Assembly: GCA_016786595.1 (NCBI GenBank)
Contig: JAEUWB010000035.1
Location: forward strand, 3,182-67,181
DNA length: 64,000 nucleotides
DNA from: a bacterium
GTDB taxonomy: Bacteria > Bdellovibrionota_C > UBA2361 > SZUA-149 > JAEUWB01
Direction: 5' to 3'
Below, piece by piece: positions 36,344-63,535 of the stretch (positions are counted from its first letter, which is position 1; every line of letters begins with the position of its first letter). The notes beneath the pieces were generated by a model. It ran no database searches. It was not told the DNA's origin and was given only the letters and a program-made list of their open reading frames with translations. Made by a program: the position numbers and the translations under genes.

Positions 36344-36346
36344 CTT

Positions 36347-38836
36347 ATGGCTGACTACGTATCCGCCGGAACAGAAATGGCAGCAATGCTACAGACTGCA
36401 GGTTACTTCGCGCAATCTGAAATTCTTGCCCACTTAGGCTGGATGTTTGATCAAATTGGCGTAGTGATTCTACTAGGCTGCGCAATTTTTGCCATAGTCT
36501 CTTTTGTTGTTTACGGGCGTGCCGATGCGACAAAATGGTTCTTATTGGGACCACCGCTATTTATTTGGATCCTCAGTTCTCGTATCGAAGCGCATGGAAC
36601 TAAATGGCAGTTTGGTACCTTCGACCGCGGTACTCCTAATGCAGCAGAAGTCTTTCCTTCGATGGAAGGTAAACAGATTAAAGTCTCCTGGGCCTTCCAT
36701 CAGTGGGATTTATTTGTCTCTGAGCTTTCACGCCAACTGATCGACATGTTGACCAAGAGTAGCGAAAAGCCAGATTTGCTTTTTAATGTACGTCAGCAAG
36801 TTATGGATAAAGTGATGTCATCGCGTGTTGCCGATCCGGGATTACTTGAATTAATCCATCTAAGCATGCGCGGACAGTGCGCTGAGAATACGAATTTAAT
36901 TCAACGCATGGTCGATATCGAAACGCAAGATTTGTACAGGAAATATAAAAACCCAACCGACCGTGGCGGATTAAGTCCAGAGGAAGTAAGAGCGGCTGAG
37001 GCTTTAGAGCGCGATTGGAATGCGACCAAGTATCAGCTCGATCTTAAAAGCGGTTCGCGTGAAAATAAACTTAGCGAATCGGCGCGAAACTATGTCCGTG
37101 GGAACTTAACAATTATTGAGAAGACAGGAACTGCAAGTGCCAGTGCTCCAACGGATGTCTCCTATGATGAGTGCATTGGTATAACTGGAACAGAATTAGC
37201 GAAAATGAATTTGGATCTTGCCTGTTCAAACGGAGCTGCTTGCACTGAGGAGCCGAGTGAGTTTTACGATAATGTTTCCTGCGCTCATATCTGGAATTGG
37301 GTTTATCTCGGTGCTAAGCAAGAAGCTTGTGGTGCGATTACCGAAGCGATTGACGGGAGTTTGACCACTAACGCTCAGCAGCCAGAATTGCGTGTAGAAG
37401 TAGCTAAAGAACTTTTGAGTAAGTTGACTAACGGTTCTGGAGGCGAGGCCCCCTCAGCCTATTTGCCACAGATTGTTGCCGGTTATTTTATTCGGAATGA
37501 GCTGACTCGTGACCCAAGTCGCAACTGGGCAAGCACCTTGCACCAACACCTCAGTATTGACGGCATTGAATACGATTATAAAATCAAAACCGAGTACGAA
37601 AATAATGTGCCGGGGGACTTCAGTAAAAATGAGGATATCTATAAAGGTTCGCGACTTTTACGTGAAGCACTAGATTCTTATACGCATCGCTTTACACTTT
37701 ACAGCACGGCTATGGCGATGCCCTACTTTCAAGGTGTATTGCTTTATATACTCGCACTACTATTTCCGTTCTTCTGTATTTTTATTCTTGTTCCAGGTTT
37801 TGCCGGGGCATTCTTTATTTGGCCTGCGCTTTGGATGTGGGTGAAATTCTGGGATGTCGGGTTTGCAATGGTTAAGGTCCTCGATGAATTTCTCTGGGAA
37901 ATTATGCCACACGCAAATTACGATTGGCGCTCTGCGATGGAAGGCACCGGAGAGATTACGCGAGCACCGGTTGATGCCTTGCGTGTAGCTTTTGGTTATG
38001 ATCCGGGTTACAGCCTCTCAAATTACTACCACATTCTTTCTGTTGCGCTTGTGAGTATCCCTGTAGTTTTTGGACAGGCGATTCTTGGCGGCAAAGCCGC
38101 ACTAGTGTCTCCATTTTTAAATGGCGCTAAGGCGCTTGGGCAGAAGCGTGGCGCAGATGCAGACATGATGTACGGTTCATATCAGGCAGGTGTTATCGAT
38201 AAACTGCGTGAAAAATACGCGGTAAAAACAGTTAAAAACCGCCTTCGTAAAGGCCAAGTCGCTCGAACAGGGCGTAGGGAACTCCTTGGAATTAAAGAAC
38301 AAATTGATGCCACCGAAGCAAGTCAGTCGCAAAACCTGATTAATGGTGGGGTAGGGATGGTGCTAGGCGGAGTAGCTACAGTCGCTGGAGTTATCTGCTG
38401 TTTTACTGGAGTGGGTGCTGTGGTTGGAGCACCGTTAATCGGTGCAGGAGTAGGTGCGATGGCTAGTTCAGGAATGTCTACAGCAGGGGCAATGATTGAT
38501 AAGCGTCGTTTAGCAAATCAAGGGCGAGCTGGTTACACGAAATTAAATGCAAGAATGTTATACCAAGATTTACAGAAAGACCGCAGTTATCAGGCCTTTG
38601 ATATGTATCGTGCAGCAGTTACTGACCGTATTGAGTTTTGGAACTTGCCGGATGTTGACAGTCAATCAATAGCTAAGTTGGCAACTTTTGCGACAGAGAT
38701 GCAAGCAAAAACTGGCAGCATCGATACACATCAGATCGGGAAAATGCTGGGAGATACTGCTGAGCTAGCTGAAATTGGATCATGGTTTTCTGGCAAGGGT
38801 GGTGGACCTAAACCAGGTGGAGTTGGGACACCGTAA
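36347..38836 (+). CDS. Tandem paralog 2 of 5 (829 aa)
   Basis: AGTEMAAMLQTAGYFAQSEIL, TM, soluble region, PYFQGVLLYILALLFPFFCIFILVPGF...WPALWMWVKFWDVGFAMVKVLDEFLW, and a Gly/Ala-rich hydrophobic C-terminal segment (GGVGMVLGGVATVAGVICCFTGVGAVVGAPLIGAGVGAMA). Confidence 0.7.
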   Translation: MADYVSAGTEMAAMLQTAGYFAQSEILAHLGWMFDQIGVVILLGCAIFAIVSFVVYGRADATKWFLLGPPLFIWILSSRIEAHGTKWQFGTFDRGTPNAAEVFPSMEGKQIKVSWAFHQWDLFVSELSRQLIDMLTKSSEKPDLLFNVRQQVMDKVMSSRVADPGLLELIHLSMRGQCAENTNLIQRMVDIETQDLYRKYKNPTDRGGLSPEEVRAAEALERDWNATKYQLDLKSGSRENKLSESARNYVRGNLTIIEKTGTASASAPTDVSYDECIGITGTELAKMNLDLACSNGAACTEEPSEFYDNVSCAHIWNWVYLGAKQEACGAITEAIDGSLTTNAQQPELRVEVAKELLSKLTNGSGGEAPSAYLPQIVAGYFIRNELTRDPSRNWASTLHQHLSIDGIEYDYKIKTEYENNVPGDFSKNEDIYKGSRLLREALDSYTHRFTLYSTAMAMPYFQGVLLYILALLFPFFCIFILVPGFAGAFFIWPALWMWVKFWDVGFAMVKVLDEFLWEIMPHANYDWRSAMEGTGEITRAPVDALRVAFGYDPGYSLSNYYHILSVALVSIPVVFGQAILGGKAALVSPFLNGAKALGQKRGADADMMYGSYQAGVIDKLREKYAVKTVKNRLRKGQVARTGRRELLGIKEQIDATEASQSQNLINGGVGMVLGGVATVAGVICCFTGVGAVVGAPLIGAGVGAMASSGMSTAGAMIDKRRLANQGRAGYTKLNARMLYQDLQKDRSYQAFDMYRAAVTDRIEFWNLPDVDSQSIAKLATFATEMQAKTGSIDTHQIGKMLGDTAELAEIGSWFSGKGGGPKPGGVGTP

Positions 38837-38841
38837 CTTTT

Positions 38842-38983
38842 AGACTGAGTGCCAAAATAGCTGTTAATTAGGCTGTAGTTGAGGCACTCAGTCTAATCGT
38901 CCAGTAAACTGATTTTACTGGACAAAATAAATAAATACCCGTTGACGAAAGTTTCGTTAATCGAAAAAACTTTTGGCAACGGG
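38842..38983 (+). promoter_or_regulatory. Structured intergenic region splitting the paralog array: a 12 bp-stem hairpin (AGACTGAGTGCC/GGCACTCAGTCT), a second hairpin (CCAGTAAA...TTTACTGG), and a third (CCCGTTG...CAACGGG) containing a TTGACG -35-like element
   Basis: Read directly from the sequence. This is the only untranslated gap longer than 4 bp among the five paralogs, so it is a probable terminator plus internal promoter. Confidence 0.45.
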
Positions 38984-39009
38984 TTTAGGTAAAGATTTTT
39001 AAAAATAAT

Positions 39010-41145
39010 ATGCCACCAGAAACGGATGGAGTTGCAATTGGTGCTGTAGGGCACTTAATCGCTGCAGTGATGCAGACAGCTGGCATGTATGGCCAGTCTG
39101 AGATTCTTGCGACTATGCAGTTCTGGTTTCAACAAATGGGAGCGCTGATTTTTATTGCTTTCGCAGCAATGGCTCTCGGCCAACTTGTCATTTTTGGATC
39201 CTATCGCGGCGCGCTTTGGTTTGTGATCGCGCCTGTTCTCTTTCAATATGTAATTTTCTCTAAGCAAAATGTTGAGCTTACCAATTGGAAGTTTGGTAAC
39301 CGTTACGGTGAGAATGCCGGGCTAAATAGTGGAGAAGAGGAGTCAAAGGCTGCGATTGAGGAAAAGCTCAAGGAACTTAAGGTAGAGCTTCCAGAAAATG
39401 GAACAGCCTACTTATCGAATATATTTGTTGAATTTGACAAAGCAGTTTCTGCTATCGTGCAAAACACAGTAGCATTTCTAGTCGACCAAGATCGCCAAAG
39501 CGACCTTAAGTTTGTTGCCCGCATGAAATTATTCGAATCGCTCTTTCAAGAGCGACCCAATAGCGCAGGCTTGCATGAACTGATTATGACGGGTCTTGTC
39601 GGTGAGTGCGGGCAAGCGACAAATAATATGCAATCGCTCTCAAGTATTAAAATTCTAGAAGAGAAAGCCCGTGCTAAGGGTTCGAGTTTAGATCCGAAAA
39701 TTTTAGAACAGAAAAGCAAACTCGAAGAAGAACAAGCTCGCATATTTAGTGACCGCAAAGTGCAGTTTTCACGACCAGTTTGTCAATACTTGCAAGACTT
39801 ACAAGGTTGCTTCATTGGCAGCAATTTTCAGGAATTAAATTGCACACGTCCGGACTTGTACGGCTGCTATGAGCCACTATCCTACCTGCGCCCGAGTGAA
39901 CGCGGGAGTCAAGACTCGGCATCATGTAGCGACGTTTGGAAATATGTTTTCTTAGGTACATACCAGGAAGCAAAATATAAATTTGAAAAACTTGCTAAGG
40001 AAAACACCAAGCTTGGGTTGAAATGGGAAGACTTAGCAAAAGAAGTCTTGGAGAAAATTCCAGCCACTGGGGAGATTGATAATCCTGAAGTTTCTTCAGC
40101 AGCGTTTCAAGTGATTGCCGGACATTTACTACAGAACCATGTGCTGAGAACTCCTCACGGCGCATTAACTAGTGGCCTTTATGGTCGTCTGACTGAACAC
40201 TCGCAGATGACTAGTGAGATATTTGAATGGGGACAAGATGCTGAATCAATCGGGGATCAAGCATACTTATTAACGCTCAGTGGAATGCTACCTTATATTC
40301 AAGGTGTGGCCTTGTTTCTACTGTCGATTACTTTCCCATTCTTTGCGTTGTTCTTATTAATGCCAGGAAGAGTGAATACATTTTTCATGTGGCCTGCAAT
40401 GTGGATTTGGGTCAAGTCTTGGGATATTGGCTATGCACTTGTGCACATGATCGAGCAGCTGCTTTGGGAATTCATGCCGCATGTTGTACGTAGTGAACTT
40501 AGTGCTTACACAGCAGACTGGACGAATCCGAATTCAATTTGGACCACAATCTTTAGCAATGACCCAGTTTATTCGCCGAATTTATATTACTCCGTTTTAG
40601 GCGTATCGACTTTAGCAATTCCGGTGATCACGGCCCACCTGACCATGGCCAGTACTGACTTACTTGATGTATTTAACTCACGCCTGTCTTCATATGGCTC
40701 TCGTGTTCAAGCGCGTCAAAAGAACGTCGAGCGTAACCGCTTAGGAGGAACTCGAGATAATGAGTGGAAAATGGCTACTGGTGAAGCATGGGATAATGCA
40801 CGTGTCGCCTTAATGAAAAGTGAAGCTGGTAAAGCTAAGAAAAAACAAGGCGATGGTCTTTATGCCCGCTACGTCGATGCTAAAGCAAATCTTGCGCGTT
40901 TTGAGCGCAGTCACGATGATGACATTATTTGGCAAAAATCTTCAGCCAATATGCTGCGGGGTGCTCGTAAGATGAACTACAGCGCTAAATACACACAACA
41001 AGCAATCGATTCAGAAGCAGAATTGTATATCCAGGAAAAGGGATACGAGAGTGGCTTCTATGGATCAGAGAATTACGATACTACAGCGACGAATGCAGAT
41101 GCTTCAGTTTCGTCGGGTGGTGATAATGATGGTTCTGGAGAATAG
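39010..41145 (+). CDS. Tandem paralog 3 of 5 (711 aa)
   Basis: VGHLIAAVMQTAGMYGQSEIL, TM (IFIAFAAMALGQLVIFGSY), LPYIQGVALFLLSITFPFFALFLLMPGR...WPAMWIWVKSWDIGYALVHMIEQLLW. Confidence 0.7.
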   Translation: MPPETDGVAIGAVGHLIAAVMQTAGMYGQSEILATMQFWFQQMGALIFIAFAAMALGQLVIFGSYRGALWFVIAPVLFQYVIFSKQNVELTNWKFGNRYGENAGLNSGEEESKAAIEEKLKELKVELPENGTAYLSNIFVEFDKAVSAIVQNTVAFLVDQDRQSDLKFVARMKLFESLFQERPNSAGLHELIMTGLVGECGQATNNMQSLSSIKILEEKARAKGSSLDPKILEQKSKLEEEQARIFSDRKVQFSRPVCQYLQDLQGCFIGSNFQELNCTRPDLYGCYEPLSYLRPSERGSQDSASCSDVWKYVFLGTYQEAKYKFEKLAKENTKLGLKWEDLAKEVLEKIPATGEIDNPEVSSAAFQVIAGHLLQNHVLRTPHGALTSGLYGRLTEHSQMTSEIFEWGQDAESIGDQAYLLTLSGMLPYIQGVALFLLSITFPFFALFLLMPGRVNTFFMWPAMWIWVKSWDIGYALVHMIEQLLWEFMPHVVRSELSAYTADWTNPNSIWTTIFSNDPVYSPNLYYSVLGVSTLAIPVITAHLTMASTDLLDVFNSRLSSYGSRVQARQKNVERNRLGGTRDNEWKMATGEAWDNARVALMKSEAGKAKKKQGDGLYARYVDAKANLARFERSHDDDIIWQKSSANMLRGARKMNYSAKYTQQAIDSEAELYIQEKGYESGFYGSENYDTTATNADASVSSGGDNDGSGE

Positions 41146-41147
41146 GC

Positions 41148-43577
41148 ATGCCGGATCCAGTCAATAGCATCGAATCAGGATCTTTAGGAACAGCAGGTTC
41201 TCTGATTGCTGCCGCCTTGGAAACTGGCGGGCATTATCTCCAATCCGGAATAATTGATACTTTCTCGCAGGGACTTTCCAATGAAATTGGCGCCGTGCTC
41301 TATATCGCTGCAGCAATTGGCGCAATTATGACTGTTGCCCTTGGCGGCAGATATCTGCACGCAATGTGGTTTATCGCTGGGCCAATTCTTTTTCAAGCAG
41401 TTGTTTTTTCGCGCACCCCTTCAATTGGCCCATCCTTTTCGATGGGGCAGCGGCCAATTACCATGGACGAGAAAAAAGCTGCGTTGAATGAAGCGATTGA
41501 TAGCCCCTCGTTGGAACTGCTCAAGCAAGCGAAAGTTTCAGTGTTTTTTAGCACCTGGGTGCAAATTGTAGATAGTGTCAACCAGGGCTTGATTAAGGTT
41601 ATTTTTCAAATCAAGGATCAAGATCAATTACAATTCTTATTACAAAGCCAAATTTATGCAGCGATGCTCAATTCCCGCATTGAAGATCCTGCACTTCAAA
41701 CATTAACAAAGCTTGTCTTGCTCAAAGAATGTGCTCCCTATGTATCGGCCGCAAGAAGTGCTTATGACGATAACTTAACTACTAAAAATCAACTCGAAGC
41801 TCAGGGTTTAATGCGGGATTATGGGGCCTTCCCTGTGTCTTTAGATACGCACCCGTATTTAAGGCAGTTTATGGATTCACCTTTTGCAAAAAGCATGTTC
41901 GAGAATCCTAACGCTGAGTGTAAGGACCCACACATCGCAGGTAAAACAAATATAGCCTGCGCTGATATTTGGAATTTGGCATTTTGCTCACTGAAGCAAG
42001 AAGCGCGCAGAATGGTGCTAGATACGATGAGCTCAGTGCCGCAAGAAGTGACAGATGCATCTGTAATGCAAGCGATTTTAAAAAAGCTAAACCCTGACAC
42101 TGCGGCGCACACTCCTGCTGAGCAATTTAACATTGTCTATAATGCAGTTGCTGCACGGATGATGAATAAAGCATTGAAGGAATTGAATCCAGGCTCGCAG
42201 TATTTGCTTGCCGACCGGGATTTTAAGCTGGCCAATGATCAAGTTTTTTCGGTCAATAAAATTGTTTCCAAAATTAACGTTCCAGAACGCTATAAAGGTG
42301 TCGGTGATTTTCTTGAGGCGATGTTAGCTCTGCCCTATGTGCAAGGCATGCTTCTATTTTATTTGTCACTTGCCTTTCCATTTTTTGCTTTAGCTTTGAT
42401 CATTCCTGGTAGATATGAACTTTTCTTGGCTTGGATGGCTTTGTGGGCATGGGTTAAATCTTGGGATGTTGGCATGGCAGCAGTCATGCTCTTAGAGAAA
42501 ATTCTCTGGTCAACCTTGCCCGGCACTCACGCAATTGATGATCGTTTTGCCGAAGATCCGGGGCTAGTCTTTAAGCAGGTGCTAGGGTCAGATCCACTTT
42601 ACTCGATGAATACGCATTATCTAATTATTGCTGGAGCGATGGCCGCAGTGCCAGTGTTGACGGGATTTATCGTTAAACGCGGAGCCGGTGAAATTATTGA
42701 TGCTGTTGGCAATAGTATGGGTAAGTTTGCTGGCCGCATCGGTAACGCAATGCGCGACTACGAATCTTCGATTCACGCCCAGAACGAAGTTGCCTTGATG
42801 GCTAAGAAAAAAGAAGATGCCGTGATGGCAGCCCGTGGCGGAGCATTTGCCCGCGCCTCAGACGCTTACGAGAAAAGAATGGTCCTTAGTAGCGCAAGCC
42901 AAGCCTCGAAAGGTGGTATTGTTAATAATGTCTTGATTAATCCTAAGTCAGTGCTGCAGGGACAATCTACTAAGAGCGCCAATATTGCCGGTTCAATTAT
43001 GGACTTTGAAATGGCGAATAACGTCTATAAGGCAAGTATCTCTAAAGATGTCTTAAAGCATGCTTGGAGTGCGGTCTCTTACGGTTGGTATAACCACGAT
43101 TTCCAAGACGAGCCGGTCTGGGATTACAAACGTAAATTCGAATTGGCGAAACTAGGTCAATTTGAGCGTAAGGGATATTCTGAACCTTTTAAGTGGTTTA
43201 CCGATGTGGCTTATCAAGGGAAAGAAGTGCGAGGCGTAGGAGATATTTATGCACAAATTCCGCGAGAACTCACTGTGATGGCTGGGTTGTTCAGTAGTGG
43301 GAGTCCCGCGAGTTTCGTATTGCAGCCATTGTATACCCACCAAATTACTTCGACGATTGCGCACGAACAGCGCCCAGACCTACGCCGCGATGGTATGGAC
43401 TTGGCTAACGTTGTCCAACGCAGCACTTACTCAGGGACTCGTATTGATGGAGGGGATATCATGCTCGGTCGATCTGAAAATCGCATGACTAAGTATCAAG
43501 ATCGCGCTGAAAACGATCAGTATATCGCCTATCAGAGAAAATACTTAGGCACTGGTGGGGGAATTGAGGGAAGGTAA
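41148..43577 (+). CDS. Tandem paralog 4 of 5 (809 aa)
   Basis: GTAGSLIAAALETGGHYLQSGII, TM (VLYIAAAIGAIMTVALGG), LPYVQGMLLFYLSLAFPFFALALIIPGR...WMALWAWVKSWDVGMAAVMLLEKILW. Confidence 0.7.
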   Translation: MPDPVNSIESGSLGTAGSLIAAALETGGHYLQSGIIDTFSQGLSNEIGAVLYIAAAIGAIMTVALGGRYLHAMWFIAGPILFQAVVFSRTPSIGPSFSMGQRPITMDEKKAALNEAIDSPSLELLKQAKVSVFFSTWVQIVDSVNQGLIKVIFQIKDQDQLQFLLQSQIYAAMLNSRIEDPALQTLTKLVLLKECAPYVSAARSAYDDNLTTKNQLEAQGLMRDYGAFPVSLDTHPYLRQFMDSPFAKSMFENPNAECKDPHIAGKTNIACADIWNLAFCSLKQEARRMVLDTMSSVPQEVTDASVMQAILKKLNPDTAAHTPAEQFNIVYNAVAARMMNKALKELNPGSQYLLADRDFKLANDQVFSVNKIVSKINVPERYKGVGDFLEAMLALPYVQGMLLFYLSLAFPFFALALIIPGRYELFLAWMALWAWVKSWDVGMAAVMLLEKILWSTLPGTHAIDDRFAEDPGLVFKQVLGSDPLYSMNTHYLIIAGAMAAVPVLTGFIVKRGAGEIIDAVGNSMGKFAGRIGNAMRDYESSIHAQNEVALMAKKKEDAVMAARGGAFARASDAYEKRMVLSSASQASKGGIVNNVLINPKSVLQGQSTKSANIAGSIMDFEMANNVYKASISKDVLKHAWSAVSYGWYNHDFQDEPVWDYKRKFELAKLGQFERKGYSEPFKWFTDVAYQGKEVRGVGDIYAQIPRELTVMAGLFSSGSPASFVLQPLYTHQITSTIAHEQRPDLRRDGMDLANVVQRSTYSGTRIDGGDIMLGRSENRMTKYQDRAENDQYIAYQRKYLGTGGGIEGR

Positions 43578-43579
43578 GT

Positions 43580-46378
43580 ATGGCAGACCCTGTCTCAGTT
43601 GGCTCATCAGCATTAATGGTTGCTTCAGCTCTGGAGACTGCTGGTTATTATTACCAGTCCTATGTGCTTGATTCATTCAGCTCTACAATCATGGGGCCAC
43701 TTGGTGCGATTGCCTTTATTGTTGCAGGGATACTAGCAATTACTCAGTATGTTGTTGCCGGTGAATATAAGGCTTTTCTTTGGTTTGTAGTTGGTCCGGG
43801 GTTATTAGCAGCTGTTATTTTGACGCGCGAACCTACGACAGGCTCAAATTGGATTTTTGGCGATGAAGCTCGCGATCAAGCCGAAAAAAATGAAGTGATC
43901 CAATCAATCACAACAATCGATAATACAAATACCCCAAAAGTTTCTTCTTTCTTTGCTTGGTACAATAATTTAACGAGCGAACTTGTGCGCTCAATTGTTA
44001 CAAAACTAGTAGAGCAGCGTCAAAAAGCGGATATGACCTTTGTCGCGCGCACGCAGTTGCTACAAACTGCCGTGACTCAATCGATTTCAGATCCGCGCTT
44101 GAGTTCCATGATTCACGCAGGTCTTTGGGGACATTGTGGTGAGCTTGCTAAGGCCGCAAGGCAAACTCATCTTGCCAGCCTTGGTGATCGTGGCGCTGAT
44201 CCAAAGGGTGAGTATCAACGCTTTTATAGTCAAAATAAAGATCAAGAAATTGTTCCCTATAGTCAATACACAATTGATTATTTGGTTTCGCGTGCTGATC
44301 CTGCGAATCGTGCAAATGTGGCAAAAGAAGCGCAACGATCGTACTCCTGCCAAGAAATTTGGGATTTAGTTTACGAAGATCTCCTAGATCAATCAGCTCA
44401 AATCCAGACTCGCTTAACTGAGCGAGCCAAGTCCTTAGGTATCCCTGAGGAGAAATTTGAGGCAGATCTAACAAAAGCTCTAGGCGGCATGACTGCTGAC
44501 GATCCAAATCGTGGGCATGAACTGCATCAAGTATTAGCTAAGCATTTATTGAAAATTGAGTCGCACAAGGGATCAAGCGCACGCTATCCTCAAATGCTTG
44601 CGCGACAAGGTGGCGAAGCGGGCTCTGTTGCTAAGGTAGAACGCATGAAATGGTCGGGCCGCGAGCAAGAGCATAAAAGTAGGCTGGTCACAACTGCGAT
44701 GACGCTACCATACTATCAAGGGCTAATGCTTTACTTCTTGGCCTATACTTTTCCATTCTTTGCGATCCTTTTAGTGATCCCTGGTAAGTATACGGGCGCG
44801 TTAATGTGGTGCGTGCTCTGGTTGTGGGTGAAGAGCTGGGATATTGGCTATGCTGTTGTAATGATGCTTGATGATATTCTGTTTGGAATGTTTGCAGCTA
44901 ATCAAGATCCTACGGCATCGCAATTTTCCAATGATTTGGGCACCGTGATGGCCAGTCTTTCGGCATACGACCCGACGATGAATTTATCGACTTATTATTA
45001 TATTGTGGGCGTTTGCTTTTCTACTATTCCGGTGATCATGGGCTATATGGTGATGGGTGCGGCGAAAGGCGGAGCCCAGCTGATTGAAAACGGCGCAAAA
45101 ACATATGCGACTTCAATCGGAACTGGTGCTGGGTTATCGCAAAACCAAGGCCAGAACTTACAACTTCGCGCAGGAGAATTTAGAGCAGCAACGAATAATA
45201 TTTTTAACCGCTTAAGAAATGACAATGCGAAAACTCGTAATGACATGTCAGATATGGAATATCAGTCGCGCAAGGGTGGACTGCCAATAATGCCCAATAA
45301 CCGCGTTGATTCTATTAGTGGGCGCAGCATTCAGCAGTTGAAAGATGATTTTGTGTATTGGAGTGCTTGGGAGGGAGCGTTTGAAGGGTATAAAGGAAGC
45401 GGCCTTGTGCGTAAATTCGCAGGAGATTTAGGCATTGCTGGAAATATCGAGACTCCTGGGAAGGACGCGCAAAATGTGGATGTTGACAACGCATTAACTC
45501 CAATTACTTTTGCAACCCGCCGCTTAGCAGGAACAGCCTTACCAAAAGTAGCATTTGAGAAAGAATCTGCTTACAAGCATATGCAAGCTCGAGTTGGGCA
45601 AGTTATTGCCGAAGAAATGTTTGACTATTCACTTTCTTTTGCAGGCATGGCTCATGCGCAAGACAGACGCGTTTATCGAGGCTTTGAATTGCCATCGGCA
45701 TATGACGATCCGGGCGAAAGTATTTACGCCGCTAGAATGGTTAAAGACCAACGGTTAATTGAGAGCGCTAAGGCAATTAGTAACACGGGATTCAATCTTA
45801 CTCGCGGTGGCGTGCAGTTTATCGAGAACTACGGTAAAGGCAAAAAAATGCGAGGTAGCGTAGATAAGGCGGGTAAAAAAGGTGGGGGCTTCGGAGGTAA
45901 AACTAATGGCACCCCTCTCATCGGTGGACAGCTTGAGCCAATTTTTATTACATTAGGCGTAGCTGATCAGCTAGAAATGGGAGATTTCGGCTACACTCCA
46001 AACCAACACATGGACATCGCACTGGATCAACAAACTTTCCATGACAATGCAATTGGCAGTGGTCCAGGAGGACGTGCTCCGGAAATGCCTGGTTATGCAG
46101 GAGTTGTTGAGAAAGTGGTCGGATCAAACCTACAAGATTGGAACCAGCGTTCTTATGGGACAATGGATTTAAGTGAAGCTTCAATCGCGGAGCGTAAGCA
46201 CGTAACTGCACGCTTAGAGCAGGCAATCGACGATGCTCGGCTTGGTAACCGCGAGGCTGATATAGCTAGAAACTTGTTAGCAGATCGCTACACTTCGATG
46301 GCGGATTTGAAACAATCCTTAGATCGCCTACTTGAGGAAAATCAAAAACTCGCTAAGACGGAAAAATCCGGCAATTAA
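43580..46378 (+). CDS. Tandem paralog 5 of 5 (932 aa)
   Basis: SALMVASALETAGYYYQSYVL, TM (AIAFIVAGILAITQYVVAGEY), LPYYQGLMLYFLAYTFPFFAILLVIPGK...WCVLWLWVKSWDIGYAVVMMLDDILF, long C-terminal soluble domain. Confidence 0.7.
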   Translation: MADPVSVGSSALMVASALETAGYYYQSYVLDSFSSTIMGPLGAIAFIVAGILAITQYVVAGEYKAFLWFVVGPGLLAAVILTREPTTGSNWIFGDEARDQAEKNEVIQSITTIDNTNTPKVSSFFAWYNNLTSELVRSIVTKLVEQRQKADMTFVARTQLLQTAVTQSISDPRLSSMIHAGLWGHCGELAKAARQTHLASLGDRGADPKGEYQRFYSQNKDQEIVPYSQYTIDYLVSRADPANRANVAKEAQRSYSCQEIWDLVYEDLLDQSAQIQTRLTERAKSLGIPEEKFEADLTKALGGMTADDPNRGHELHQVLAKHLLKIESHKGSSARYPQMLARQGGEAGSVAKVERMKWSGREQEHKSRLVTTAMTLPYYQGLMLYFLAYTFPFFAILLVIPGKYTGALMWCVLWLWVKSWDIGYAVVMMLDDILFGMFAANQDPTASQFSNDLGTVMASLSAYDPTMNLSTYYYIVGVCFSTIPVIMGYMVMGAAKGGAQLIENGAKTYATSIGTGAGLSQNQGQNLQLRAGEFRAATNNIFNRLRNDNAKTRNDMSDMEYQSRKGGLPIMPNNRVDSISGRSIQQLKDDFVYWSAWEGAFEGYKGSGLVRKFAGDLGIAGNIETPGKDAQNVDVDNALTPITFATRRLAGTALPKVAFEKESAYKHMQARVGQVIAEEMFDYSLSFAGMAHAQDRRVYRGFELPSAYDDPGESIYAARMVKDQRLIESAKAISNTGFNLTRGGVQFIENYGKGKKMRGSVDKAGKKGGGFGGKTNGTPLIGGQLEPIFITLGVADQLEMGDFGYTPNQHMDIALDQQTFHDNAIGSGPGGRAPEMPGYAGVVEKVVGSNLQDWNQRSYGTMDLSEASIAERKHVTARLEQAIDDARLGNREADIARNLLADRYTSMADLKQSLDRLLEENQKLAKTEKSGN

Positions 46379-49700: not shown

Positions 49701-50078
49701 ATGGAGGCAATTGCATCTATGTTCAGTCATCAAAAATTATATGTATATCAAAAGGCTATAACTTATTTTTCAAAAATTGCAGACATTCTTGTCCAAATTC
49801 CACCGGGGAACAAAGACATCGTAAGCCAGTTGAGGAGGGCAGCGATCTCAATAGCGCTTAATATTGCCGAAGGTGCAGGTAAGACAAGTTCTATGGATAA
49901 AAGACGTTTTTATTCGATAGCACGTGGCTCTGCTTTAGAATGTGCTGCGATATTTGATTTATTGGTTATCTTGAAGCTTTCAAGTGAGGAAGAATTGAGC
50001 GAATGTCGCGCACTTCTGAGCGAAATTGCGTCAATGTTTTCAGCTATGACACAGGTGAACAAAAAGGTCGAAGGCTAA
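49701..50078 (+). CDS. Four-helix-bundle protein (TIGR02436 / S23p type, the family typically encoded inside 23S rRNA intervening sequences)
   Basis: YQKAITYFSKIADIL...LRRAAISIALNIAEGAGKTSSMDKRRFYSIARGSALECAAIFDLL is the characteristic pattern of this family. The stop codon lies inside the downstream family-B repeat. Confidence 0.75.
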   Translation: MEAIASMFSHQKLYVYQKAITYFSKIADILVQIPPGNKDIVSQLRRAAISIALNIAEGAGKTSSMDKRRFYSIARGSALECAAIFDLLVILKLSSEEELSECRALLSEIASMFSAMTQVNKKVEG

Positions 50079-52066: not shown

Positions 52067-53053
52067 ATGAAGTCAGTAACATTTTCATTTCGCACGGAAA
52101 CAGCGCTTTTTTCTTTGGCCTTTGGCGGGCTGCCACTGCGTGAGCAGGCGTTTAAGGGGGCAATGCGCTACTGGTATAGGGCCTTCTGTGCTTCTGCTTA
52201 TAATCTTAAATCTCTTGCGCATAAAGAGTCGCAAATTTTTGGCTCTAGTGGGAGACAAGGCCAGGCCACGAGGGGAGTGCGTCTCCAACTAATCCGACCA
52301 AACGTCCTGCCCCAAGAAATCTCGCCACAGCCACACAAGGAACGGGTTAAACCTTTGCGCGCCTTGCCAGCGCGGCATGAATTTCAACTTGTGTTATCAC
52401 AACCACACTCGATGCGTGACGAGGATTTTCTAAAAGCCTGTGCTGCACTTTGGCTTGCTGCTACAATCGGTGGATTTGGTCGGCGTTCGCGACGTGGAGC
52501 GGGAGGAGTGCGGGTTATTTCAATCTCAGGTTCGTATCAACTGAACTTGCCAGTAATCCATCAGCAGTGGTCGAGTGACGAACTTAAGAATGCATTAAGT
52601 GCCGGTTTAATTGAAGCCAGAAAAATATTATTCGAAGGCGGAAAAAATATTGAAACTCCCAATCAGTTGCGCGGCGATATCCCACAACTGGTTAGCGGTA
52701 AAGATGGTTCGCATATTATTATTTCTGACCTCGGCCCTAGTAGCGAAGCCGAAGCGCGCGCTAAGCTCATGCTTAAGTTACGGCAATTTAAAAACCAAAT
52801 TTTTGGTTTGCCGTTGAAGATCAATCAGGGAGAGAATGGAGCGCAGGCAGAACGAAAAGAGCGCTTCAGTCGAGAAGGTTCCAAGCGTTATGCATCACCA
52901 GTATGGATCAGGCTAATTGAGTTAAAGAGCGGGTGGACAATGATTGTCACACTCTTATTGCCGCTGCCCCGAGTTAAAACGGCCAATCGAGATAAGCTAG
53001 ATGAATTTTTAGCTGCGCTCAAGCAGAACCGTAAAGAGGTTGCAATTCCATGA
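52067..53053 (+). CDS. cmr1: Type III CRISPR RAMP protein, Cmr1-like
   Basis: N-terminal TETALFSLAFGGLPLREQAFKGAMRYWYRAF matches the Cmr1 LFxGG...RxxSxKGALRFWFRA signature. QIFGSS block. Gly-rich loop GGFGRRSRRGAGGVRV. First gene of a four-gene operon with overlapping stops and starts. Confidence 0.6.
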   Translation: MKSVTFSFRTETALFSLAFGGLPLREQAFKGAMRYWYRAFCASAYNLKSLAHKESQIFGSSGRQGQATRGVRLQLIRPNVLPQEISPQPHKERVKPLRALPARHEFQLVLSQPHSMRDEDFLKACAALWLAATIGGFGRRSRRGAGGVRVISISGSYQLNLPVIHQQWSSDELKNALSAGLIEARKILFEGGKNIETPNQLRGDIPQLVSGKDGSHIIISDLGPSSEAEARAKLMLKLRQFKNQIFGLPLKINQGENGAQAERKERFSREGSKRYASPVWIRLIELKSGWTMIVTLLLPLPRVKTANRDKLDEFLAALKQNRKEVAIP

Positions 53054-53844
53054 GCGAGAAAACAGTTTTTATTCATGCCTTAACGGGCATTGGCTCGACC
53101 GGTGAGAAAACTGCAAGCCTGACTTATCTACCACGCGCGGCCATGGAAGCGGCCATAGACACGGATTTAAAAATTCCAGTCATCAGAACCTCAACCTTAA
53201 TGCGGGCGTTGCGGCATGCTAAAATTACAATCAATCCTGAGAATATTTCTTATGACCCGAGCTTATTGCTTTTACCGGTGCGCACCCCCGCGGGACTTTT
53301 TGCCTGGATCACTTGTCCGGCAGCGCTCGGGAAAATGAAATTACTCGGGTCGAATAGCAATCAAACGATCCAAGGCTTTACTTTTAATCCTGAAGTTCAA
53401 GCTTACGTTACACGGTCGTGTCAAATTTTACTCGATCGGGAATTAATAATTGAAGAATATTTCTTACGTTCAAAATACAGTAATGAACTTGATGTGATCG
53501 CGCTTGAACTTGCAAAAAATATTTTTTCTGACCCAGGATATGAATGGTGGCAAAAGAAACTCCAAATGGATCTCGTTGTCGTCAGTAACCAAACCTTTGC
53601 TGCAATGCTGCAAACGGCCCTGGAAATACGCGCACGTGTTGCCGGCAATTCCGCTCAAATCGCAAGGAAGACTCCCTACCTCTACGAAGAGCTATTTCCA
53701 GCAGAAGCGGTGCTAATTACCGCTTTAGCTGCAGAAAACTTGCCAACAGAGACAAAATTAATTGAACTCGGGAATAATCTTAGCACCGGACGAGGGCTAT
53801 CTCGACTAATTATGAGAGCAAGTAGTTATGACCTTGGAGCATAA
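53050..53844 (+). CDS. cmr4: Type III CRISPR backbone RAMP, Cmr4
   Basis: Start overlaps the cmr1 stop (ATGA). Cmr4 signature blocks: LLLPVRTPAGLFAWITCPAALGKMK (thumb region: L.PVRS..G.FAyvTSP.vL.R), ARKTPYLYEELFPAEAVLITAL (gaLfyeE.lPaesvfy), and terminal Gly-rich loop ELGNNLSTGRGLSRL. The N-terminal IPVIRTSTLMRALRHA corresponds to the IPGSSLKGVLR block but is divergent. Confidence 0.65.
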   Translation: MSEKTVFIHALTGIGSTGEKTASLTYLPRAAMEAAIDTDLKIPVIRTSTLMRALRHAKITINPENISYDPSLLLLPVRTPAGLFAWITCPAALGKMKLLGSNSNQTIQGFTFNPEVQAYVTRSCQILLDRELIIEEYFLRSKYSNELDVIALELAKNIFSDPGYEWWQKKLQMDLVVVSNQTFAAMLQTALEIRARVAGNSAQIARKTPYLYEELFPAEAVLITALAAENLPTETKLIELGNNLSTGRGLSRLIMRASSYDLGA

Positions 53845-54259
53845 AACAGCTGATCGCGGAACTGCGGTAGTTGCTGCGGCAGACAATTTATTTTCTGCTG
53901 CACTAAAGCGCCGAAAATCTGGCGCAACTAAAGCGCTGATTTATCGTATGCCGGTTGTGATTGCACGCCATGGTATCGGACAAGCTATTGCTGAATTAGA
54001 GCAGAGTCCAGTAGGTAAAATGGTTCGACATTATTTAGGACTTTGGATCTGTGAACAAGCAGGAAGCGATGCTCAAAAGCTTAAAAATTTTCGCACTGCA
54101 GCTTGGGAAAGCGATTCGCAGTTGGTAATGTCAATCACTAGCGCAGCGCTCAAATTTTTTGCCCTGCAAGCTCAGCAATTCACGCAAGTGCAGACTGATT
54201 TGCAGGAGAATCTGGAAAGTCCCGAACAGACAGCCACAATTGATCAACTAAACGAGTAA
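53828..54259 (+). CDS. cmr5: Small alpha-helical subunit, Cmr5-like (143 aa)
   Basis: Overlaps the cmr4 end. All-helical, right size, and MPVVIARHGIGQAIAEL resembles the Cmr5 aPVmIlsnGLlQTLAFL block. Weakest of the four assignments. Confidence 0.45.
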   Translation: MTLEHKTADRGTAVVAAADNLFSAALKRRKSGATKALIYRMPVVIARHGIGQAIAELEQSPVGKMVRHYLGLWICEQAGSDAQKLKNFRTAAWESDSQLVMSITSAALKFFALQAQQFTQVQTDLQENLESPEQTATIDQLNE

Positions 54260-54280
54260 CACTGAACGAGTAAGACTGAG

Positions 54281-55498
54281 ATGAGCGAAAAAACAGGCAA
54301 GATCATTAGCTATAATGCTGCCAACAAAATGGGAGAAATCGCTTTTGCCGGTTTTGATGTCCCTGCGCGGTTCTATCTTTCTGTTGTTACGAACCCGACA
54401 CCTGAACCAGTTAAGGGTGACCAAGTGAGTTTCGCAGCAGCAGATCCGGTAAAAAATAAAAAAGGAAAATACTCGCCTGTAACTGCAAGTACGGTAACTA
54501 TTACTGAGCGTTCTCCCGTACGGGAAGAGGAGAAAAAATTTGATGCAACTGCTCAAAGTTTTCGCACGACACTGCAGCGTGGAGCTCGTAATGACCGCTC
54601 CAGAAACAACCGCACAAAATCAGCTTCAAAAATTTCGCAGCAAGCTCAAGAATTACGTGTGATCCCTAAGCGACAACTTTCGCTACGCATTGCCCATGAT
54701 GCAACTCCACTGCCGCGTGATATGCGTCGACGTATGGTCAATTGGGGCACTGCTAATCCAGCTTTTTTGCTAGCAAAGGGCATTTCCTGGAAGCATGCTG
54801 AAAATAATGAATTTGAGCGTAATCGCGATCATTTTCGGCATTTTATGCACAAAACATTTCTGCCGGTTTATCAAAATGCAGTGAAGAATCTTATCCCTTT
54901 AGAGGCACTCAAAACTCGGCAGATCCAAATTTATAAATCCCTACGAACTCAGGGCTATTTACTCGATCATCGTGTTTTAAAATTATCTACACCACTAGTG
55001 CTTGGGCAGAATGCTTCTAGTTTATTACGGCAAATCAGTGTCGTTACTGACCATCTTTATGGTTATCCTGTGGTGCATGGGTCAATGATCAAGGGAACTT
55101 TTAAAGAATATCTACAAAACTTACTGGCTGGAGATCCTGGACTTGCAGTAGCTAGAGATTTTGAACAAATTTTTGGGACAACAGAGGCACCAGGCCGGGT
55201 GATCTTCTTTGATTCTTTTCCTACGCGGGCTTTGCCTGATCTTGGATTTGAAACTCTGCAGGATTCATTCCCTGCTTGGTATCATGGCCGGGGTTCTGCA
55301 GCTGATACTCAGTTACCTGAACGAGACTATCTATCTGTGATTAAACCTGGAGCTGAATATACATTTAGTTTTGCGTTGAGGCCTGGCTCAGAAGAGTCGC
55401 TACTTGGCACGGTAGGGAACTTATTGCAGCAAATGCTTGTTGAGTTTGGGCTGGGATCAAGAACCGCCCTAGGATATGGGCGATTCAGGGTTAACTAA
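54281..55498 (+). CDS. cmr6: Cmr6-type RAMP with an N-terminal cold-shock domain (CSD) fusion
   Basis: aa 1-70 KTGKIISYNAANKMGEIAFAGFDVPARFYLSVV...KGDQVSFAA follows the CspA pattern (GxVKWFNxxKGFGFI...VFVHxSxI...GxxVxF). The C-terminal half has Cmr6 blocks PVVHGSMIKGTFKEYL (pyIPGSSlKGvlR), EQIFGTTEAPGRVIFFDSFP (lFGs...G.v.F.DA.P), DSFPAWYHG (tPHy.pYY) and the terminal Gly-rich loop EFGLGSRTALGYGRFRV. Confidence 0.6.
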   Translation: MSEKTGKIISYNAANKMGEIAFAGFDVPARFYLSVVTNPTPEPVKGDQVSFAAADPVKNKKGKYSPVTASTVTITERSPVREEEKKFDATAQSFRTTLQRGARNDRSRNNRTKSASKISQQAQELRVIPKRQLSLRIAHDATPLPRDMRRRMVNWGTANPAFLLAKGISWKHAENNEFERNRDHFRHFMHKTFLPVYQNAVKNLIPLEALKTRQIQIYKSLRTQGYLLDHRVLKLSTPLVLGQNASSLLRQISVVTDHLYGYPVVHGSMIKGTFKEYLQNLLAGDPGLAVARDFEQIFGTTEAPGRVIFFDSFPTRALPDLGFETLQDSFPAWYHGRGSAADTQLPERDYLSVIKPGAEYTFSFALRPGSEESLLGTVGNLLQQMLVEFGLGSRTALGYGRFRVN

Positions 55499-55584: not shown

Positions 55585-56088
55585 TTAGCAAGTCGAACTG
55601 TTATAGCACTTTGTCGGATTTGGAATGCGGTAGCACTTTCCAGTTTTTCCTACAGCAAACACGGTAACTGAGCCTGTATTTGCTTTTGCTTTTGACGCCA
55701 TTGATTTTGTGCTTTGGCAATTTGCGCCCGGTGTGCCGCAACCATAGTAGCGGAATTTATACAATGCACCTGCAGGAGTATAAGGTCCCCAACTGGCGAT
55801 TCGATTGCCTTTATTATCAACTATTTTCCCAGAAAATGTTACTGCGCAACCACGCTTAGCAATTAGTGATCCGCTTTTGTGGCGAGGATTATTCCGTGGA
55901 ATATGCGCTGATTGCTTTTTGCCTTTGTAAATCAAACAACCCGGTAAGGAAGCAACCGATTTACAGACATCCGAAAAAGCGCTGGTTGAGCGAGTTAGAT
56001 CTTCTAATTCGTCAGCAATTGAATCTAACTCATCTGCCAAAGCCGGTAAGGGCATGATCAATGTTAAAAGTAATAAATATTTTTTCAT
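55585..56088 (-). CDS. Secreted Cys-rich small protein, paralog 1 (167 aa)
   Basis: Signal peptide MKKYLLLLTLIMPLPALA, acidic propeptide-like DELDSIADELEDLTRS, and 8 Cys including the C-terminal TGKCYRIPNPTKCYNSSTC. Confidence 0.55.
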   Translation of the reverse strand: MKKYLLLLTLIMPLPALADELDSIADELEDLTRSTSAFSDVCKSVASLPGCLIYKGKKQSAHIPRNNPRHKSGSLIAKRGCAVTFSGKIVDNKGNRIASWGPYTPAGALYKFRYYGCGTPGANCQSTKSMASKAKANTGSVTVFAVGKTGKCYRIPNPTKCYNSSTC

Positions 56089-56119: not shown

Positions 56120-56671
56120 TTAGCAACCTGAGCTGTTGTAGCATTTGCGTGCATCAGGGATTTCTACGCAGCGTTTATTTTTGCCAACGGCGTAAATTGT
56201 TCCTGAGCCTGTGTTTTGGACTGCGGTGTTATAGATTGATCGAGCACGGCGGCAACATCCGCTACAGCTTTGTACTCCTTGTGTGCAGTAAAATCTGTAG
56301 GCATAAGTTTTGCCAGAGTTATTATAGCGCACAAGGCTATTCACGACATTGCCCTTACTGTCGACGAAATTCATTTTATTGCCGTAACGTTTTGTGCAAC
56401 CACGAAAGCCAATCCAAGTGTTGCCCTTAGCTCTTGGATTGCTGTTGCCGATATGTCCTGAGATCTTAGTTTTGTATACAGCGCATTTGCCTTCGCTCTT
56501 GATGTTCACGATTGTTGAGCAGACATCTTGAAGTGCCTTAGTCGAATGATTGATTTCGGTGTTGTTAGTCGAAACTTCATTGATCGCATCCACTAAATCT
56601 TCTAAATCATCTGCAAATGAAAATGATGGGATTAGTAGAGTGATAAGGGAGAGAATAATTTTATTTCTCAT
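56120..56671 (-). CDS. Secreted Cys-rich small protein, paralog 2 (183 aa)
   Basis: Signal peptide MRNKIILSLITLLIPSFSFA, acidic DDLEDLVDAINEV, and C-terminal KNKRCVEIPDARKCYNSSGC parallel to paralog 1. Confidence 0.55.
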   Translation of the reverse strand: MRNKIILSLITLLIPSFSFADDLEDLVDAINEVSTNNTEINHSTKALQDVCSTIVNIKSEGKCAVYKTKISGHIGNSNPRAKGNTWIGFRGCTKRYGNKMNFVDSKGNVVNSLVRYNNSGKTYAYRFYCTQGVQSCSGCCRRARSIYNTAVQNTGSGTIYAVGKNKRCVEIPDARKCYNSSGC

Positions 56672-63000: not shown

Positions 63001-63180
63001 ACTTTTGTCCGTTGATATAGTTTCTTTGTTTATCTAAGTTAAAGAATTTAAAGCAGAGAAACTAGGATATTCTTCGCGAGATAACAAGGGGTGCAAAATA
63101 AGCACTTAACATCGGGTATCTTGTTGAAAACTTTACTCATTCGGCAATCCGTTTTAGATTGCTGAGAAGTGGCAAATGTG

Positions 63181-63254
63181 CGCCCTTAGCTCAGCTGGAT
63201 AGAGCAACTGGCTTCGAACCAGTAGGTCGGGAGTTCGAATCTCTCAGGGCGCGA
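63181..63254 (+). tRNA. tRNA-Arg (anticodon UCG)
   Basis: Cloverleaf folded by hand: acceptor GCGCCCT/AGGGCGC, D-arm GCTC-AGCTGGATA-GAGC, anticodon arm ACTGG-CTTCGAA-CCAGT (UCG), T-arm GGGAG-TTCGAAT-CTCTC, discriminator G. No encoded CCA. Confidence 0.85.
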
Positions 63255-63535
63255 TGGCTAGAGAAGTGCAGAGGATTTGCAACTAGAGGATTCGAACCGG
63301 GCGGCCGTTAGGCTGCCGAATCAGTAGGGTGAATCTCTCAGGGCGCGATGGCTAGAGAAGTGCAGAGGATTTGCAACTAGAGGATTCGAACCGGGCAGCC
63401 GTTAGGCTGCCGAATCAGTAGGGTGAATCTCTCAGGGTGCGGTGGCTAGAGAAGTGCAGAGGATTTGCAACTAGAGGATTCGAACCGGGCGGCCGTTAGG
63501 CTGCCGAATCAGTAGGGTGAATCTCTCAGGGCGCG
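63255..63535 (+). repeat. Three tandem 93-94 bp direct repeats, each ending with the last 17 nt of the adjacent tRNA-Arg (GAATCTCTCAGGGCGCG)
   Basis: Units 63255-63347, 63348-63441, 63442-63535, differing only by a few substitutions and one 1-bp indel. Begins exactly at the tRNA 3-prime end. Confidence 0.85.

Follow-up and report, generated by a model that had tools for sequence, protein, structure and literature searches.

In the solved Cmr complexes, Cmr6 and Cmr1 together cap the "head" of the particle at the crRNA's 3' end, where binding of the target RNA starts. Canonical Cmr6 proteins (TIGR01898; A. fulgidus 3x1l_H and 9l7c_I, P. furiosus 4w8v and the Cmr-beta chain 6s6b_I) are matched through their RAMP core only; they do not match a cold-shock domain (CSD) profile and lack a polybasic tether. 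A different case is PDB 9arw chain H (also 9z7q, 9z7v and 9z7x), whose deposited name is "CSD domain-containing protein Cmr6" and which has a canonical CSD at residues 3–64. With such a protein among the PDB entries already, the CSD-Cmr6 fusion is itself not new. Neither a paper for 9arw nor a description of a CSD-Cmr6 fusion was found in the literature searched.

Backbones that have lost Cas10 are also known. As reviewed in PMC8730458 and PMC12669027, type IV systems and the type III-E gRAMP effectors have a reduced type III-like backbone without Cas10, as does the locus described here, but type IV keeps Cas5 and the Csf1 large subunit, whereas our module has no Cas5, and in type III-E the Cas7 domains are fused and the array is kept, whereas here Cmr1, Cmr4, Cmr5 and Cmr6 have separate genes and no array lies nearby. 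Nothing like a Cas10-less Cmr1/4/5/6 module was found in term searches of those two papers or elsewhere in the literature searched, and term searches of the 2025 CRISPR classification paper turned up neither such a module nor a CSD-Cmr6 fusion. The version in the window (the whole 64-kb stretch of DNA that was analysed) is of interest because it combines a type III-B backbone with the absence of Cas10 (signalling/nuclease), Cmr3 (the crRNA-handle binder) and a nearby array. Most of the reduced modules also lack the slicer residue, and yet the CSD is their most conserved part; the arrangement recurs in rare relatives, in diverged chromosomal contexts.

Domain structure of the Cmr6-like protein

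Positions 54281–55498 (+ strand) hold one unbroken 405-aa frame in the ORF list, that of the Cmr6-like protein, and the original prediction that a cold-shock domain is fused here to Cmr6 was confirmed. This single polypeptide consists of a divergent cold-shock-type OB domain (residues 1–78, 54281..54514, + strand; supported by AF2, Foldseek, hhalign and alignment A1), a polybasic and disordered tether of about 64 residues (residues 79–142, 54515..54706, + strand; supported by pLDDT, composition and comparison of length and charge in the family) and a complete Cmr6 RAMP core (residues 143–405 plus the stop codon, 54707..55498, + strand; supported by TIGR01898, PADLOC, PDB profile matches, Foldseek and alignment A3).

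The core has the RAMP fold, the C-terminal glycine-rich loop (G-L-G-S-R-T-A-L-G-Y-G-R-F) and the N-x-x-L-L-x-K motif of Cmr6, and it scores above the family cut-off: NCBIfam TIGR01898 (Cmr6) matches residues 233–402 with 69.7 bits (cut-off 51.1), the PADLOC Cmr6 models match residues 205–404 (E 1e-23), and the Pfam RAMPs family gives 45.7 bits against a cut-off of 22.1. The best Foldseek matches to the protein are the Cmr6 chains 9l7c_I, 3x1l_H and 6s6b_I, and profile matches are to the Cmr6 chains 3x1l_H, 9l7c_I and 9arw_H. The N-terminal part of the core carries P-L-P-R-D and N-P-x-F-L-L-x-K (here A-N-P-A-F-L-L-A-K, residues 158–166); G-Y-P-V-V-H-G-S-M-I-K-G is also present, as is F-F-D-S-F-P, whose Asp311 is invariant in the family. 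With canonical Cmr6 the protein shares the RAMP core, the glycine-rich loops, an F-F-D-A-x-P-type motif and the gene's place after cmr5.

The N-terminal domain is harder to recognize by sequence. In the HMM comparison that had been proposed as a check, of residues 1–90 against the CSD family PF00313, this segment has no Pfam match at E ≤ 1, and none in NCBIfam or PADLOC; in this the window protein differs from cold-shock proteins (CspA/CspB/CspE and the CSDs of CRHSP-24/CARHSP1, Unr, YB-1 and Lin28), and only 3 of 18 family members match PF00313 individually (best E 7e-5). Word-indexed protein searches returned only the query itself for the single sequence, nothing for the CSD alignment and at least five matches for the full-length alignment. 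Structure and profile comparisons, however, agree with the claim of a CspA-type OB fold. AF2 predicts a five-stranded antiparallel beta-barrel, the CSD topology, for the domain alone (pLDDT 86.7; strands at about residues 4–12, 17–22, 29–32, 48–52 and 71–76), and in the full-length model, where the cold-shock-type barrel is also seen, the block means over residues 1–80 are 89–98. The best Foldseek matches to the domain are CRHSP-24, CspA, Bc-Csp, CspC, CspE, Unr and YB-1. Cold-shock-domain proteins make up 16 of the 17 matches of the A1 profile to PDB sequences (E 0.013–1.9), and when A1 is compared by hhalign with seven canonical Csps, the probability is 92% (E 6e-7). The domain corresponds to the segment 54281–54520 of the original prediction. 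The same domain, beginning M-[AS]-E-[RK]-x-G, opens 18 relatives (alignment A1), and at 59% mean column identity, compared to 27% for the whole protein, it is the best-conserved segment in the Cas10-less clade.

The face through which cold-shock proteins bind nucleic acids is largely altered. The aromatic RNP1 and RNP2 motifs (K/N-G-F/Y-G-F-I/V and V-F-V-H-F) are absent: RNP1 is N-[RK]-Q-G-x-I in the window family, compared to K-G-F-G-F-I in cold-shock proteins, and RNP2 is x-F-Y-L, compared to V-F-V-H-F. Two positions of the CspA aromatic face (W11, F12, F18, F20, F31, H33 and F34) stay aromatic, Y11 (equivalent to CspA F12; 16 Y and 2 F among the 18) and Y32 (equivalent to H33; 17 of 18), while most family members have non-aromatic residues at the equivalents of W11, F18, F20, F31 and F34. 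The basic beta4-beta5 loop, R-K-N-K-K-G-K in the family and V-K-N-K-K-G-K at residues 57–63 in the window, is conserved; it is longer than in cold-shock proteins and Lys-rich, a trait partly seen in CRHSP-24.

A basic linker leading into the Cmr6 core had also been claimed, and this holds: residues 79–157, which extend 15 residues into the core, contain 19 K+R and 8 D+E (net charge +11), ahead of the TIGR01898 match. The tether begins with a short helix (residues 82–94) and continues as a disordered stretch (predicted disorder at 91–138; AF2 pLDDT below 50 at 91–117 and 123–138). It is 84–174 aa long with 22–34% K+R in the Cas10-less clade, compared to 50–59 aa and 12–14% K+R in the canonical clade.

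Operon content and neighbourhood

The CSD::Cmr6 gene is the last in an operon of four + strand genes, for the subunits Cmr1, Cmr4, Cmr5 and Cmr6, that lies among housekeeping genes. The first is a cmr1-like RAMP gene of 328 aa (52067..53053; TIGR01894 33.6 bits, cut-off 28.65; PADLOC Cmr1 1e-18), followed by a cmr4-like backbone RAMP gene of 264 aa (53050..53844; PADLOC Cmr4 5e-20) and a cmr5-like small-subunit gene of 143 aa (53828..54259; Pfam Cas_Cmr5 E 2.8e-5, 24.7 bits, cut-off 21; PADLOC Cmr5). Recent horizontal acquisition was rejected because the GC content of the operon (45.7%) equals that of its host (window 45.5%).

The Cmr4 family profile matches PDB Cmr4 9arw_C with E 2.8e-33, the best PDB match of this family, but only from about residue 65 on; the N-terminal 65 residues of the Cmr4-like protein fall outside the profile alignment with PDB Cmr4. 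In alignment A8 the catalytic Asp position of Cmr4 is occupied by Tyr26 (LTYLP here, VVDLP in Cmr4 from full loci). Four of six reduced modules have lost this Asp (Tyr26 in the window, Phe in L004, deleted in L003 and L006), and L002 and L007 keep it.

Scans of 35 window ORFs and of the 10-kb flanks of relatives L002, L006 and L017 gave no Cas10/Cmr2 domain. They also gave no Cas_Cmr3, either for the window or for the reduced-module loci; Cas_Cmr3 is present in L008, L011, L014 and L015. The 64-kb window contains no Cas6, and no CRISPR-like repeat family was found in it or in the L002 and L006 loci. A CRISPR array or non-coding RNA beside the operon was considered and rejected: the spacers flanking the operon are about 65 and 86 nt, there are no repeats, and the Rfam scan of the window gave tRNA only. 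Cas10, Cmr3 or an array could be located elsewhere in the genome, as the scans covered the 64-kb window.

The reduced four-gene operon also occurs in L002, L003, L004 and L006, in differing housekeeping contexts, and a three-gene form is found in L005 and L017; one subclade has lost Cmr1 and has a degenerate Cmr6 C-terminal glycine-rich loop. One reduced module sits inside a menaquinone gene cluster, and in L007 a MenC-like enzyme of 375 aa is encoded upstream of the module. A tighter alignment (A4) matched only two genomes of the genome collection, both from Bdellovibrionota.

The fusion in complete type III-B loci

When other genomes were searched for the same fusion, as had been suggested, it was found in relatives that include full type III-B loci. 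Metagenomic CSD::Cmr6 proteins occur together with Cas10/Cmr2 and Cmr3 in L014, L011 and L015/L016; L014, the one of these loci that also has Cas1/Cas2/Cas4, reads Cmr1-Cas10-Cmr3-Cmr4-Csx1-like-Cmr5-CSD::Cmr6-Cas1-Cas2-Cas4. L008 is also a full locus with Cmr3 and Cas10/Cmr2, and its CSD-like domain is C-terminal. The CSD::Cmr6 proteins of the canonical clade match 9arw chain H best (E 5e-56). These proteins and 9arw_H itself are CSD-RAMP fusions of the kind that the original prediction could not recall from canonical Cmr complexes. They also weaken the suggestion that the domain could stand in for the missing Cas10/Cmr3: related loci that have both carry the fusion as well, and the domain therefore did not arise as their replacement. 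It may have taken on such a role later, in the reduced module.

The protein in the window resembles 9arw_H in having an N-terminal CSD and a linker, followed by P/L..D, N-x-x-L-L-L-x-K and the RAMP core of Cmr6. However, 9arw_H keeps RNP1 and RNP2 (KGFGFI and IFFHI), whereas the window CSD has lost most of the aromatics and conserves a Lys-rich loop; the linker of 9arw_H is about 25 residues long, compared to the polybasic tether of about 64 aa; and 9arw bears its depositors' type III-B/Cmr names, whereas the window operon has neither Cas10 nor Cmr3. The two CSDs give no significant alignment to each other. In a neighbor-joining tree of the RAMP core alone, which carries no support values, the Cas10-less clade adjoins most canonical Cmr6 proteins that bear a CSD. 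The simplest reading of the core proteins and of the domain's position is that the fusion common to the window and the neighbouring type III-B branch would have been inherited. P0062 and P0059 suggest that the CSD fusion has had multiple origins, and since they hint at repeated events and the CSDs of the window and 9arw_H do not align significantly, we infer common descent and do not regard it as proven.

Possible roles of the tethered domain

The role that appears most likely, judged from the features above, is that the CSD would capture or tether single-stranded RNA at the head of a Cmr-derived complex that does not slice, and we give a probability of about 0.55 to the whole explanation, in which an inherited fusion is kept in a reduced Cmr1-Cmr4-Cmr5-CSD::Cmr6 module with this putative function. 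Because Cmr6 and Cmr1 cap the crRNA 3' end, a CSD flexibly tethered to the N-terminus of Cmr6 would hover over that end, where it might capture ssRNA, or melt RNA, and so pass single strands on to the Cmr4/Cmr5 filament. Binding by the CSD would probably be more electrostatic and involve less base-stacking than in cold-shock proteins, since the aromatic RNP1/RNP2 face is mostly replaced and Y11, Y32, the R-K-N-K-K-G-K loop and a more basic tether remain. The whole complex would probably be an RNA-binding, non-slicing particle, and any guide RNA that it uses would be encoded elsewhere. Provided that the module is autonomous, it would represent a natural reuse of Cas7-family filament proteins outside adaptive immunity and would show how RNA is loaded onto such a filament without Cas5 or Cas10; it also offers a concrete test system for CSD function in complete type III-B complexes.

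A bolder form of the capture hypothesis, which we put forward tentatively as one possibility, is that the array-less and mostly slicer-dead CSD::Cmr6 module without Cas10 or Cmr3, in its four-gene and three-gene forms, has been exapted as a chromosomal RNA-binding machine of Bdellovibrionota-type bacteria. Its role would then lie outside defence, for example in chaperoning or protecting RNA or in post-transcriptional control, and the CSD and tether would be its main RNA-loading device, replacing the recognition of the repeat tag by Cmr3/Cas10.

It is also conceivable, though we think it doubtful, that the CSD-like barrel is now a protein-protein docking domain, for subunit assembly or recruitment of a host factor, and that RNA is contacted through the tether and the RAMPs only. 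The near-invariance of Y11 and Y32 on the canonical binding face argues against this, as do the conserved Lys-rich loop and polybasic tether that flank the domain and the fact that its top structural matches are RNA-binding CSDs.

Less probable is a form of the original suggestion in which the tethered CSD replaces the Cmr2-Cmr3 "foot", so that it holds the RNA end in the 5'-handle role and allows the Cmr4/Cmr5 filament to assemble without Cas5/Cas10. The absence of Cas10 and Cmr3 from the window and from the relatives' 10-kb flanks would fit, as would the strong conservation of the CSD and a tether that is longer and more basic in exactly the Cas10-less clade and that might perhaps span to the far end of a short filament. 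However, related loci have the fusion alongside Cas10 and Cmr3, a solved Cmr complex contains it too, and no guide RNA was identified. Moreover, no sequence-specific recognition of a repeat tag by a CSD is known.

Decay of a type III-B system to a remnant in which the CSD has no current function would account for the absent Cas10, Cmr3 and array, for the Cmr4 catalytic Asp lost in four of six members and for the subclade with a degenerate Cmr6 loop and no Cmr1, but it is very improbable: all four operon ORFs are intact, the operon has been retained in varied chromosomal contexts among lineages whose Cmr6 proteins are only about 25–33% identical, the CSD has 59% column identity, and the GC content is like that of the host.

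Finally, the notion that a small gene of its own encodes the CSD-like segment, or that a wrongly annotated start produced it as an artefact, can be dismissed, since the frame runs from the CSD to the core without a stop codon and the N-terminus is conserved; nothing was found in its favour, the sole consideration being that the Shine-Dalgarno-like sequence upstream of the ATG is weak. That ATG is the first start codon past an in-frame stop, and the cmr5-like stop lies 21 nt upstream of it. More than 20 cluster representatives have the identical architecture and the M-[AS]-E-[RK]-x-G start, and the internal in-frame ATGs encode M17, which is within the OB domain, and M148 and M152, which come only after the tether.

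The cmr operon and its fused final gene

Four tightly packed genes on the + strand of the window, recognized by Pfam, NCBIfam and PADLOC models, encode a Cmr1-like RAMP protein (52067-53053), a Cmr4-like RAMP protein (53050-53844), a Cmr5-like small subunit (53828-54259) and a 405 aa Cmr6-like protein (54281-55498); the GC content of the operon is that of the window. The final gene is one frame that opens at the first start codon past an in-frame stop, 21 nt downstream of the cmr5-like stop codon, and 2.4 copies of a 14-nt unit, ACTGAACGAGTAAC, at 54247-54279 cover that stop codon and the 21-nt spacer up to the cmr6 start. The Cmr6 models reach residues 205-404 only. The original prediction saw a cold-shock domain (CSD) joined to the N-terminus of this protein, and the CSD-like domain is truly fused to the Cmr6 core and not a separate gene: no stop codon lies between the two, family members share the N-terminal motif M-[AS]-E-[RK]-x-G, and >20 cluster representatives have this architecture. 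The full-length AF2 model (pLDDT 85) of this protein, CSD::Cmr6, has three parts, a barrel (block means of pLDDT 89-98), disordered residues 91-138 (pLDDT <50), and a Cmr6 core that is confident from about residue 145 and whose best structural matches are Cmr6 from the A. fulgidus and Cmr-beta complexes. The Lys/Arg-rich linker that had been described ahead of the core is also there, with 19 K+R versus 8 D+E in residues 79-157. Convergent with the cmr6 3' end are genes for two adjacent paralogous small proteins (55585-56088 and 56120-56671, both - strand) that match no family and have signal-peptide-like N-termini and a common Cys-rich C-terminus ending KCYNSS[TG]C.

A divergent cold-shock domain

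Residues 1-90 of the window protein match nothing at E ≤ 1 in Pfam, NCBIfam or PADLOC, so the proposed check against the Pfam CSD model (PF00313) is negative for the window's own sequence. HMMER, run exhaustively against 1.84 billion cluster representatives, gave 1820 Cmr6 relatives, and the same ~80-residue N-terminal domain occurs in 17 of the best 150 of these, in addition to the window protein. It is the best-conserved segment of the family, with a mean column identity of 59% versus 27% for the whole protein. Cold-shock-domain proteins made up 16 of the 17 matches of the domain profile to all PDB sequences (E 0.013-1.9), three of the 18 family members individually match Pfam CSD (best E 7e-5), and profile-profile comparison (hhalign) with seven canonical Csps, whose profile matches PDB Csps at E around 1e-38, gave a probability of 92% (E 6e-7). 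On this evidence the assignment to a CspA-type OB fold is sound, though the domain has diverged. By the hhalign alignment it retains aromatics at only two positions of the CspA aromatic face (Y11, which is Y or F in 18/18 members, and Y32, which is Y in 17/18); where CspA has W11, F18, F20, F31 and F34, most members have Ser/Glu, Gln, Glu/Lys, Arg/Leu and Leu, respectively. Conserved instead is a Lys-rich beta4-beta5 loop, R-K-N-K-K-G-K (V-K-N-K-K-G-K in the window).

CSD-bearing Cmr6 proteins in complete type III-B systems

Among PDB sequences the family profile also matches chain H of 9arw, the Cmr6 of a solved type III-B Cmr complex (also 9z7q, 9z7v and 9z7x), which was deposited as 'CSD domain-containing protein Cmr6'; the best PDB match of the family's Cmr4 is likewise from 9arw (E 2.8e-33). 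Residues 3-64 of chain H match the canonical Csp profile (E 6e-9), its N-terminus, GKIKTFKKAKGFGFIKYSGGEIFFHINDV... (revealed with a chimeric query), has RNP1 and RNP2 intact, and its Cmr6 core begins only ~25 residues after the CSD. The window-type CSD is found in complete type III-B loci, L014 (Cmr1-Cas10/Cmr2-Cmr3-Cmr4-Csx1-like-Cmr5-CSD::Cmr6-Cas1-Cas2-Cas4) and L011 (Cas10-Cmr3-Cmr4-Cmr5-CSD::Cmr6, then Csx3). L015/L016 are a full III-B locus adjoining a type I-C locus, and the N-terminal stretch of their Cmr6 protein, P0062, matches the canonical Csp profile weakly (E 9e-4) and the family's CSD profile not at all. The Cmr6 of L008 (3963-5198), a locus with a short mCpol/Cas10-palm protein and Cmr3, carries a CSD-like domain at its C-terminus (residues 353-410), which suggests an independent fusion. 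The CSD-Cmr6 association is therefore recurrent and coexists with Cas10 and Cmr3, and the doubt that CSD-RAMP fusions occur in canonical Cmr complexes does not hold (9arw chain H, L014, L011). In a neighbor-joining tree of the RAMP core alone, which has no support values and is indicative only, the clade from loci lacking Cas10 and Cmr3 adjoins most canonical CSD-bearing Cmr6 proteins and P0062 lies far off; this placement suggests more than one fusion event. We found no description of the association in the literature searched; the fusion itself is already known, and what the window adds is a reduced form of the module.

The reduced module and its possible function

The unusual feature is the genomic context of CSD::Cmr6, not the fusion. 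Within the 64-kb window no Cas10, Cmr3, Cas6, Cas1 or CRISPR-like repeats were found, and its RNA families comprise one tRNA only; the window is chromosomal and carries genes for MetH, CysS, transketolase, Kup, FolE2 and 2-oxoacid dehydrogenase. The operon (52067-55498) is conserved in rare metagenomic relatives: the same four genes are present in loci L002, L003, L004 and L006, with ~25-33% Cmr6 identity and differing housekeeping neighbourhoods. L006 is in a complete Bdellovibrionota genome, where genes for Ccm, arginase, DinB and T2SSE flank the module, and the GTDB species genomes gave two matches only, both Bdellovibrionota. Literature searches turned up no description of a Cmr1-Cmr4-Cmr5-Cmr6 module without Cas10, Cmr3 and array. 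A three-gene form that lacks Cmr1, Cmr4-Cmr5-CSD::Cmr6, occurs in one subclade, where the Cmr6 G-rich loop is degenerate. In L017 (8464-11668) this form has a menC-like gene upstream and menB/menD/menF genes downstream; L005 (1-2491) has the same men genes downstream, its upstream side being cut off. All four proteins compared between L017 and L007 are identical, and L018 has the same Cmr6 protein.

Alignment of Cmr4 from full and reduced loci showed that the slicer Asp (VVDLP in full loci) is deleted or replaced in four of six reduced modules: the window has Tyr26 (~53125-53127) and L004 has Phe at this position, L003 and L006 have a deletion, and L002 and L007 keep the Asp. RNA slicing has therefore probably been lost, judging from these residues. 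The reduced-clade domain differs in three ways: it has fewer aromatics, it conserves the Lys-rich loop, and a polybasic tether joins it to the core (84-174 aa, 22-34% K+R, net +11 to +25; 50-59 aa and 12-14% K+R in two canonical-clade members). Because Cmr6 and Cmr1 sit, according to published structures and biochemistry of Cmr complexes, at the crRNA 3' end, the site where target binding initiates, the tethered CSD is best explained as a device that would capture or melt ssRNA there. These three changes and the strongest conservation of all elements suggest that the CSD has become a key element of RNA recruitment in the reduced clade, as part of a complex that would bind RNA without slicing it. 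The main rival is that the CSD is a protein-docking module. Substitution for the missing Cas10/Cmr3, as originally proposed, fails to explain how the fusion arose but may apply as a secondary role; the original observation is confirmed and its interpretation partly supported.

Elsewhere in the window, three 94-nt tandem units (63237-63518, 98-100% identity) begin within the 3' end of tRNA-Arg(TCG) (63179-63254; whole region 63179-63535) and may reflect duplication of an integration site. At 33578-46378 an uninterrupted run of five large ORFs (921, 829, 711, 809 and 932 aa) resembles an array of paralogous, large membrane-type proteins; four show weak TraG_N-like matches, scoring close to or under the Pfam cut-off, and one matches DUF4225. 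The window also carries a Fic-domain gene at 11132-11899 (-) and a gene of the 23S rRNA intervening-sequence protein family at 49701-50078 (+).
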